Origin: Escherichia coli
GTDB taxonomy: Bacteria; Pseudomonadota; Gammaproteobacteria; Enterobacterales; Enterobacteriaceae
Strand: one strand, 5' to 3'
Assembly (NCBI RefSeq): GCF_013315695.1
Contig: NZ_CP054353.1
Length of the DNA stretch: 64,000 nt
Numbering within the stretch: the first letter of the stretch is position 1; every line of letters starts with the position of its first letter. The translations under genes and the position numbers were made by a program. Shown here in pieces: positions 20,760-23,049 of the stretch. The notes below the pieces were generated by a model. It had not been told where the DNA came from. It saw only the letters and a program-made list of their open reading frames with translations, and made no database searches.

Positions 20760-21710
20760 CATATCTCTGAGACCGCGATGCCGCCTGGCGTCGCGGTTTG
20801 TTTTTCATCTCTCTTCATCAGGCTTGTCTGCATGGCATTCCTCACTTCATCTGATAAAGCACTCTGGCATCTCGCCTTACCCATGATTTTCTCCAATATC
20901 ACCGTTCCGTTGCTGGGACTGGTCGATACGGCGGTAATTGGTCATCTTGATAGTCCGGTTTATTTGGGCGGCGTGGCGGTTGGTGCAACGGCGACCAGCT
21001 TTCTCTTTATGCTGTTGCTGTTTTTACGCATGAGCACCACCGGGCTGACTGCGCAGGCTTATGGTGCCAAAAATCCTCAGGCATTAGCCCGTGCGCTGGT
21101 GCAACCGTTGCTGTTGGCGTTGGGGGCCGGGGCGTTAATTGCGCTGCTGTGTACGCCGATTATCGATCTGGCGCTGCATATTGTTGGCGGTAGTGAAGCA
21201 GTCCTGGAACAGGCGCAACGCTTTCTTGAAATCCGCTGGTTAAGTGCACCGGCGTCGCTGGCGAATCTGGTATTACTTGGTTGGTTACTCGGTGTGCAAT
21301 ATGCCCGTGCGCCAGTAATTTTGTTAGTGGTCGGCAATATCCTCAACATTGTGCTGGATGTCTGGCTGGTGATGGGGCTGCATATGAACGTGCAGGGCGC
21401 GGCGCTGGCGACGGTTATTGCGGAATATGCAACATTGCTGATTGGTCTGCTAATGGTGCGTAAAATCCTCAAACTACGCGGAATCTCCGGCGAAATGCTG
21501 AAAACTGCCTGGCGAGGAAACTTCCGTCACTTGCTGGCGCTTAACCGCGATATCATGCTGCGCTCGCTGTTGCTGCAACTCTGTTTCGGCGCGATCACTG
21601 TACTTGGCGCGCGACTGGGGAGTGACATTATCGCTGTTAACGCGGTTCTGATGACGCTACTCACCTTTACCGCCTATGCGCTGGATGGTTTTGCCGGTAA
21701 TGACTCCAAC

Positions 21711-22214
21711 TTATTGATAGTGTTTTATGTTCAGATAATGCCCGATGACTTTGTCATGCAGCTCCACCGATTTTGAGAACGACAGCGACTTCCGTCCCAG
21801 CCGTGCCAGGTGCTGCCTCAGATTCAGGTTATGCCGCTCAATTCGCTGCGTATATCGCTTGCTGATTACGTGCAGCTTTCCCTTCAGGCGGGATTCATAC
21901 AGCGGCCAGCCATCCGTCATCCATATCACCACGTCAAAGGGTGACAGCAGGCTCATAAGACGCCCCAGCGTCGCCATAGTGCGTTCACCGAATACGTGCG
22001 CAACAACCGTCTTCCGGAGCCTGTCATACGCGTAAAACAGCCAGCGCTGGCGCGATTTAGCCCCGACATAGCCCCACTGTTCGTCCATTTCCGCGCAGAC
22101 GATGACGTCACTGCCCGGCTGTATGCGCGAGGTTACCGACTGCGGCCTGAGTTTTTTAAGTGACGTAAAATCGTGTTGAGGCCAACGCCCATAATGCGGG
22201 CTGTTGCCCGGCAT
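21711..22214 (-). CDS. insB: IS1 InsB (expressed as InsAB by -1 frameshift)
   Basis: 167-aa ORF overlapping insA in the -1 frame. Confidence 0.9.
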
Positions 22215-22408
22215 CCAACGCCATTCATGGCCATATCAATGATTTTCTGGTGCGTACCGGGTTGAGAAGCGGTGTAAGTGAACTGCAGTTGCCATGTTTT
22301 ACGGCAGTGAGAGCAGAGATAGCGCTGATGTCCGGCGGTGCTTTTGCCGTTACGCACCACCCCGTCAGTAGCTGAACAGGAGGGACAGCTGATAGAAACA
22401 GAAGCCAC
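22133..22408 (-). CDS. insA: IS1 InsA
   Basis: 91-aa [46 protein letters not shown]. Confidence 0.95.
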
Positions 22409-23049
22409 TGGAGCACCTCAAAAACACCATCATACACTAAATCAGTAAGTTGGCAGCATCACCGGTTTTGCCTACGCGGTTGAAGCGCATTCCGGTCAGG
22501 CGTACGGTGCGCGCGATGGTAGCCAGTTACTGGATGTCTGGCGGGCAGCGTGCCGCCAGTCGGGGATTGTAGCGTTACTGTTTTCGGTGGTTTATTTGCT
22601 GGCAGGGGAACACATCATTGCGTTGCTGACGTCGTTAACCCAGATTCAGCAGCTGGCTGACCGCTATCTTATCTGGCAGGTGATTTTGCCGTTGGTCGGC
22701 GTCTGGTGTTATCTGCTCGACGGCATGTTTATAGGTGCAACGCGCGCCGCCGAAATGCGTAACAGTATGGCGGTGGCCGCCGCAGGTTTTGCGCTGACGC
22801 TCCTTACGCTGCCGTGGCTGGGGAATCATGGTTTGTGGCTGGCATTAACCGTCTTTCTGGCGTTACGCGGGCTTTCTCTGGCGGCTATCTGGCGGCGTCA
22901 CTGGCGCAACGGTACCTGGTTTGCCGCAACGTGACGGTTAAAAATTCTGAATAAATAATCCTAAGCCAAATTGCTGACTACACTTAATCTCACGTTCAGA
23001 AGAAAAGTGAACGTACTCTCATTCACAACCTAACGATGAGGTCTTGATT

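Follow-up and report, generated by a model that had tools for sequence, protein, structure and literature searches.

What does an insertion sequence in the lexA-dinF operon of Escherichia coli do to dinF, and does it reach as far as lexA? The question is raised by a 64,000-nucleotide stretch of E. coli DNA, hereafter the window, in which an IS1 element lies inside dinF. The two genes have been described as co-transcribed (PMC3327717, citing Kenyon and Walker), and the gene order in the window (plsB, dgkA, lexA, dinF, yjbJ, zur) matches that of K-12, placing dinF directly downstream of lexA as stated in the initial annotation of this locus. That annotation had proposed that a genuine transposition event inactivates dinF and may also change the 3' end of the lexA transcript. 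Here we ask how far the element, its junctions, the interrupted protein and the intact relatives of this locus bear out both parts of the proposal.

A complete IS1A element flanked by a perfect target duplication

The element in dinF runs opposite to the gene (Table 1) and aligns without gaps to the IS1A copy of K-12 MG1655 (NC_000913.3, 19796-20563), with which it shares its length, its ends, the insA/insB layout and the A6C motif. Of its 768 positions, 767 are identical; the single substitution, at element position 325, has C in place of A, and the copy differs further in that it sits inside dinF. The left end begins with GGTAATGACTCC at 21696 (longer read, from the sequence of positions 19800-23600, GGTAATGACTCCAACTTATTGATAGTG), and the right end, GGCAGCATCACC (longer read, GTAAGTTGGCAGCATCACC), finishes at 22463. 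Inverted arms of 25 nt, 80% complementary to each other, were located by a repeat finder at the two termini (21694-21718 and 22441-22465). InsA covers positions 1-81 of the NCBIfam transpos_IS1 model and matches the IS1/IS1595 zinc-binding domain at 41 bits (cut-off 28), while the insB frame covers model positions 75-199 at 145.6 bits (cut-off 100). On translation, the fused InsAB' frame is open over 232 aa, and RefSeq labels the element 'IS1-like element IS1A family transposase, programmed frameshift'. A length of ~768 bp with ~23-bp imperfect inverted repeats, insA and insB with the A6C motif, and a 9-bp duplication are the features that define the IS1 family, and all of them are found here. 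The copy looks complete and transposition-competent as judged from its sequence, and its description in the initial annotation as a full 768-bp IS1 with both inverted repeats was correct. A promoter-like site at the insA-side end points into the element and lies where we take IS1's own promoter to be.

Both ends of the element are abutted by the 9-mer GGTTTTGCC, the two exact copies being spaced 777 nucleotides apart from start to start in the output of the repeat finder. For one fixed pair of positions, the chance of a 9-mer match is 4^-9, or ~4e-6. Two more copies of this 9-mer lie elsewhere on the + strand of the window, and just the ones at 21687 and 22464 touch the IS1 ends. At the left junction, GCTGGATGGTTTTGCC is followed directly by GGTAATGACTCC. 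Deleting positions 21696-22472, which hold IS1 and one repeat, leaves 1380 nt from the ATG at 20778 to the stop codon ending at 22934; this length is a multiple of three and reads as a single open frame of 459 codons plus stop. Along its whole length, the encoded protein shares 98% identity with K-12 DinF (b4044). The initial annotation had staked its reading on the return of a continuous dinF frame once the element and one repeat are taken out, and such a frame is what we find. These data support a simple IS1 transposition marked by the 9-bp duplication, which the initial annotation had likewise read as the sign of a genuine event. An IS1-mediated deletion, an inversion and a composite transposon were each considered and rejected: the dinF sequence on either side is colinear and bears the matching duplication.

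Table 1. Features of the lexA-dinF region, in window coordinates.
Feature	Position	Strand	Description	Basis
LexA-box-like sequence upstream of lexA	20106-20121	+	CTGTATATACTCACAG	read from sequence
LexA-box-like sequence upstream of lexA	20127-20142	+	CTGTATATACACCCAG	read from sequence
lexA	20151-20759	+	202 aa, intact	ORF; RefSeq LexA WP_000646078.1
Terminator-like hairpin	20770-20809	+	13-bp stem, 4-nt loop, then U-run TTTGTTTTTC	terminator scan
dinF 5' fragment	20832-21695	+	codons 1-288 (PGAP start)	NCBIfam; RefSeq pseudogene 'missing C-terminus'
Target-site duplication, left copy	21687-21695		9 bp, GGTTTTGCC	exact, abuts IS1 end
IS1 (IS1A type)	21696-22463	-	complete, 768 bp, opposite to dinF	K-12 alignment; RefSeq
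IS1 end, insB side	21696-21718
insB frame	21711-22214	-	167-aa ORF	ORF and NCBIfam
insA	22133-22408	-	91 aa, zinc-binding N-terminal domain	ORF
-1 programmed frameshift motif AAAAAAC (A6C)	22151-22157	-	insA-insB joint	IS1 sense position 307
Promoter-like site	22429-22456	-	insA-side IS1 end, pointing into the element	consensus scan, 9/12 matches
IS1 end, insA side	22441-22463
Target-site duplication, right copy	22464-22472		9 bp, GGTTTTGCC	exact, abuts IS1 end
dinF 3' fragment	22473-22934	+	codons 289-441 and stop	RefSeq pseudogene 'missing N-terminus'

The break removes four helices of the second lobe of DinF

The initial annotation named the interrupted gene dinF, and this identification is borne out by the reconstituted protein and by the 5' piece, which matches the NCBIfam DinF equivalog NF007690 at 581 bits (cut-off 409) over model positions 1-288 of 441. 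Two start codons are in use for the gene. The K-12 (b4044) start corresponds to position 20778 of the window, as in the initial annotation, and this ATG falls in the 5' arm of the stem (20770-20799) of a terminator-like hairpin behind lexA. RefSeq/PGAP and the NCBIfam DinF model start at the ATG at 20832, which gives 441 residues. Because the K-12 start lies inside the lexA-proximal hairpin, the shorter, 441-residue annotation is favored. The break falls after nucleotide 918 of 1380 (66.5%, residue 306 of 459) when counted from the K-12 start and after codon 288 of 441 (65.3%) when counted from the PGAP/NCBIfam start. The earlier statement that dinF is split about two thirds of the way along holds with either start codon.

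A MATE transporter functions through two lobes of six helices each. In a 19-residue hydropathy scan, the reconstituted DinF shows 12 peaks, of which peak 8 spans residues 266-284 and peak 9 residues 320-338, and its Pfam MatE repeats lie at 17-178 and 241-394; twelve helices have also been predicted for DinF in the literature (PMC3327717). A PDB sequence search with DinF returned distant MATE structures only, the best being barley HvAACT1 (E = 8e-25). The break lies four residues past hydrophobic segment 8 of 12, inside the second MatE repeat, and cuts off segments 9-12 (TM9-12), which amount to 153 of 441 residues or 34.7% of DinF; this is the C-terminal third of the transporter to which the initial annotation had referred. 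The twelve-helix, two-MatE architecture is thus present in the reconstituted protein and absent from the gene as it stands, the frame of which ends after peak 8. From the break, the truncated frame reads 81 nt into IS1 up to a TGA at 21774-21776, gaining 26 IS1-encoded residues, and its product has 314 residues. Since the MATE architecture consists of two six-helix repeats and the break removes segments 9-12, a DinF lacking these four second-lobe helices is very unlikely to transport. The MATE architecture therefore argues strongly for the earlier claim that the insertion inactivates dinF, and dinF::IS1, in a gene for a non-essential MATE transporter induced by SOS, is most likely null.

The 3' fragment has no start codon at the junction. 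Its first in-frame start is a GTG at 22587, which opens the largest ORF of the fragment (115 aa), matching NCBIfam DinF model positions 327-440, and a consensus scan found no promoter-like sites on the + strand leading from IS1 into this fragment. Downstream of it, yjbJ has its own promoter-like sites (22931-22959 and 23022-23051).

lexA, its operator and the main 3' end of its transcript appear unaffected

The lexA gene is intact, and its product has the same accession (WP_000646078.1) in the window strain and in strains SW071610 and MS 21-1, both of which are considered below. The LexA-box consensus is CTG-N10-CAG; two LexA-box-like sequences precede lexA, and the SOS operator of the lexA-dinF operon looks intact. 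The hairpin between the two genes begins 11 nt past the lexA stop codon, lies ~900 bp upstream of IS1 and is identical in K-12. Its predicted folding energy is -24.1 kcal/mol (z = -4.54), a stability that 200 shuffled sequences all failed to reach. The hairpin is likely to represent either the main lexA 3' end or an attenuation point. Given its position ~900 bp upstream of the element, the main lexA 3' end is most likely unaffected by the insertion, and an effect of IS1 would be confined to lexA-dinF transcripts that read through and from which dinF is normally expressed. In line with this, a dinF deletion has been reported to leave lexA::GFP and recA::GFP expression unchanged, with or without SOS induction (PMC3327717; data not shown there). 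The suggestion in the initial annotation that the lexA transcript 3' end may be changed is therefore its weakest part.

The insertion is rare and appears recent

When 5,426 complete E. coli genomes were queried with each of the two dinF-IS1 junctions, a single genome matched perfectly both times: that of strain MSB1_4I (NZ_LR898874.1), an Australian isolate obtained by human rectal swab. In the RefSeq record of this genome, dinF is annotated as 'incomplete... missing C-terminus', an IS1A-family transposase comes next, and a MATE transporter piece 'missing N-terminus' after it; dinF::IS1 is thus already known, as a pseudogene on public record. The window is colinear with this record and differs from it at eight places in 64 kb (seven transitions and one homopolymer indel), and two of these differences have the effect of opening or closing a reading frame. 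We conclude that the window is a near-identical, though not byte-identical, assembly of the MSB1_4I clone.

Neither JGI metagenome contigs nor the GTDB species-representative genomes contained the exact dinF-IS1 junction. A 300-bp reconstruction of the empty site was found uninterrupted in 5,424 of the 5,426 genomes; it is split in MSB1_4I and had no match in one genome. Three further dinF tiles, of a length at which the search tool cannot span an insertion sequence, were uninterrupted in 5,425 of the 5,426. Taken together, the four tiles, which are insensitive near their edges and screen about three-quarters of the gene, show dinF interrupted in one of 5,426 complete genomes, with one genome giving no match and an insertion at the 3' end of dinF in SW071610 counted separately. 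The rarity of such interruptions is consistent with purifying selection on dinF, and dinF::IS1 looks private to its lineage. A literature search combining dinF with IS1, insertion sequence or pseudogene gave no mention of dinF among the papers listed, and one on the strain yielded a single Salmonella paper, unrelated to it.

The insertion in SW071610 (NZ_CM129858.1) is the sole other dinF-IS1 junction that we found. It resembles the one in the window in that it involves the same IS1 family in the same orientation and a 9-bp duplication. It is nevertheless an independent event: its duplication is CGGTACCTG, ~440 bp further 3' than that in the window, and its IS1 is a different sequence variant. 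Located near the stop codon, it swaps just the last four residues of the protein (FAAT to VMTPTY), and RefSeq keeps an intact DinF for this strain.

The pre-insertion state is represented by strain MS 21-1 (WP_001330146.1), which has no IS1 at this site and shares a near-identical 8.3-kb neighborhood with the window. Its intact dinF is identical at the DNA level to the dinF of the window minus IS1 and one repeat. Across the 8.3 kb, MS 21-1 and the insert-removed window differ by three substitutions and one 1-bp indel, all of them outside dinF. The insertion thus arose on a known natural dinF allele, and the lack of any detectable decay since then is consistent with a recent event, in what is a test of low power.

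A simple insertion and its alternatives

Very probably, the locus records a simple IS1A insertion into dinF of an MSB1_4I-like strain, with GGTTTTGCC duplicated and a probable null allele as the outcome, read most simply as one incidental hit. In the course of events that we propose, a transposition-competent IS1A would have inserted into chromosomal dinF and duplicated its 9-bp target. With the gene cut after segment 8, read-through lexA-dinF mRNA could then encode only DinF residues 1-288 and a 26-residue IS1 tail. TM9-12, which make up most of the C-terminal six-helix repeat, would be left with neither a start codon at the junction nor a detected promoter. Because lexA, its operator boxes and the hairpin are untouched, SOS regulation should be normal. 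The insertion would be an incidental hit in a strain rich in IS1 copies: the MSB1_4I chromosome carries at least 39 IS1-matching pieces, the median being 10 places per genome, which fits an IS1-rich strain gathering such hits.

The same abundance of IS1 could be taken as a sign that a copy was misplaced in dinF during assembly, or that the insertion is present in a sub-population only, and the seven transitions and one homopolymer indel that separate the window from the RefSeq record imply that consensus errors do exist. A misplaced repeat would, however, not produce a perfect 9-bp duplication at canonical IS1 ends together with colinear flanks, and the junction is identical in the window and in the RefSeq record; the chance of an artifact is remote. 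The probability that dinF is not dead is close to nil. In such a case, the TM1-8 fragment would be active by itself, or the 5' fragment would reassemble with a 3' fragment translated on its own, giving a working split transporter, for which the in-frame ORF starting at GTG 22587 (DinF model positions 327-440) offers a candidate second half. But this ORF begins at residue 327, inside segment 9 (320-338), so that the helix is incomplete and residues 289-326 would be missing, and no + strand promoter-like site leads from IS1 into the 3' fragment. IS1 insertions are polar, and Rho-dependent polarity is expected from the ~690 nt of untranslated IS1 RNA that follow the premature stop. We infer both polarity on the dinF 3' fragment and neutrality of the insertion.

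A different view is that the insertion was selected or is regulatory, either because loss of dinF is advantageous or because antisense RNA or altered read-through mRNA shifts LexA dosage and the SOS set-point. The promoter-like site of IS1 does face leftwards, toward the dinF 5' part and lexA, and between the IS1 end and lexA no strong minus-strand terminator is predicted, the sole candidate being a weak 5-bp stem (21091-21078). SW071610 likewise has an IS1 in dinF, in the same orientation and through an independent event, but as that insertion affects the last four residues only, it is unlikely to be null. IS1 has a weak promoter that InsA represses, which counts against an antisense effect, and the strong hairpin right after lexA insulates the main lexA transcript. 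The allele is found in one of 5,426 genomes, with no clonal spread detected in metagenome contigs or GTDB representatives, and dinF deletion lowers fitness in bile salts and leaves lexA and recA reporters unchanged (PMC3327717). We consider a selected or regulatory insertion unlikely on these grounds. In its boldest form, IS1 would be a selected rewiring of the lexA operon in a hospital-associated gut lineage, acting via antisense RNA or through removal of a costly pump; this would entail altered SOS dynamics or stress tolerance if true, and we regard it as very unlikely. A single genome provides no evidence of selection either way.

Expected phenotype and significance

With a simple insertion as the preferred reading, dinF::IS1 is a textbook case of its kind, an ordinary pseudogene private to one strain. 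The best available guide to its phenotype is the Keio dinF deletion of K-12, which is a loss-of-function allele of dinF too. Deletion of dinF in K-12 carries a fitness cost of 20% in 2% bile salts and of 50% in 4% bile salts and is complemented by plasmid-borne dinF, and dinF overexpression doubles the MIC for bile salts, reduces killing by H2O2 and lowers intracellular ROS (PMC3327717). The comparison is between a clean deletion in a laboratory background and a natural insertion in a clinical-source isolate, which leaves a 314-residue truncate and places an IS1 in the operon. By analogy, the transport or protective activity of DinF against bile salts and oxidative stress is predicted to be lost, and somewhat higher sensitivity to bile would be expected of a gut isolate whose dinF is null. 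Interruptions of dinF are exceedingly scarce in E. coli, and a strain with the gene deleted pays a price in bile salts, so that a purely neutral loss from a gut isolate should not be taken for granted.

Non-essential genes are commonly knocked out by IS1, and this case is of small importance beyond MSB1_4I. It is mildly noteworthy, given the expected bile sensitivity and the near-universal intactness of dinF. Together with the near-isogenic, intact MS 21-1, MSB1_4I forms a natural pair for the role of DinF in bile-salt and oxidative-stress tolerance outside K-12.

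Start codon and other interruptions of dinF

In the window region 20770-20832, the ATG at 20778, which is annotated as the start of the 459-aa dinF product in K-12, falls within the stem of the terminator-like hairpin proximal to lexA. PGAP and NCBIfam place the start at ATG 20832, giving a protein of 441 aa. The 459-aa K-12 annotation is probably an over-extension.

The dinF gene of E. coli SW071610 also carries an IS1, close to the stop codon (see the table), and this insertion is an event independent of the one in the window. Through it, the C-terminus of DinF changes from FAAT to VMTPTY, and RefSeq still annotates the gene as encoding intact DinF despite the IS1. 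Among 5,426 complete E. coli genomes, only one lacked a dinF match, and in one genome the match lay on a record whose label is plasmid, not chromosome.

Features located in the window and in SW071610
Feature	Position	Strand or orientation	Description
Window/MSB1_4I differences	5456, 9677, 15088, 15879, 24839, 56590, 60814, 63043		sequence comparison
DUF2713 (yjbL/yjbM-like) gene	24134-25138	+	single open ORF, 334 aa
Island, ssb to yjcB	about 38672-50105		RefSeq annotation of MSB1_4I
AVAST type 4 (Avs4) anti-phage nuclease	about 43982-48745		within ssb-yjcB island; RefSeq annotation of MSB1_4I
IS4 transposase ORF	55632-56978	-	open, 448 aa
IS1 near dinF stop, SW071610	3748-4524 of L002, the SW071610 locus (NZ_CM129858.1)	same as window's IS1	duplication CGGTACCTG

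Relationship of the window to MSB1_4I

Seven transitions and a single additional A within a homopolymer separate the window from NZ_LR898874.1, the chromosome of the human rectal swab strain MSB1_4I. As judged from this comparison, the window belongs to the same clone as MSB1_4I but represents another, almost identical assembly or isolate. That chromosome contains at least 40 IS1-matching pieces, the median being 10 places per genome, and it is among only 388 of 20,395 records that reach at least 40; this suggests a high IS1 load in MSB1_4I.

Two genes differ in their reading frames between these near-identical sequences. The DUF2713 gene, a single ORF in the window but divided into yjbL and yjbM in K-12, contains an A8 run, where MSB1_4I and the close relative MS 21-1 have A7; RefSeq labels both of their copies 'frameshifted'. 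The A8/A7 difference could be a homopolymer sequencing error or a genuine phase-like difference. RefSeq lists the MSB1_4I counterpart of the IS4 transposase among pseudogenes, noting a stop codon inside it, and we traced this difference to the transition at 56590. Elsewhere, a 'SopA family protein' gene lies between ubiC and malM (window 13739-15319) and is marked intact in the MSB1_4I annotation.

Gene content between ssb and yjcB

The island between ssb and yjcB has the appearance of an integrated defence island. For MSB1_4I, RefSeq annotates in it Avs4 and a protein of the AbiGi family, together with two genes for tyrosine recombinases/integrases and two hypothetical genes.
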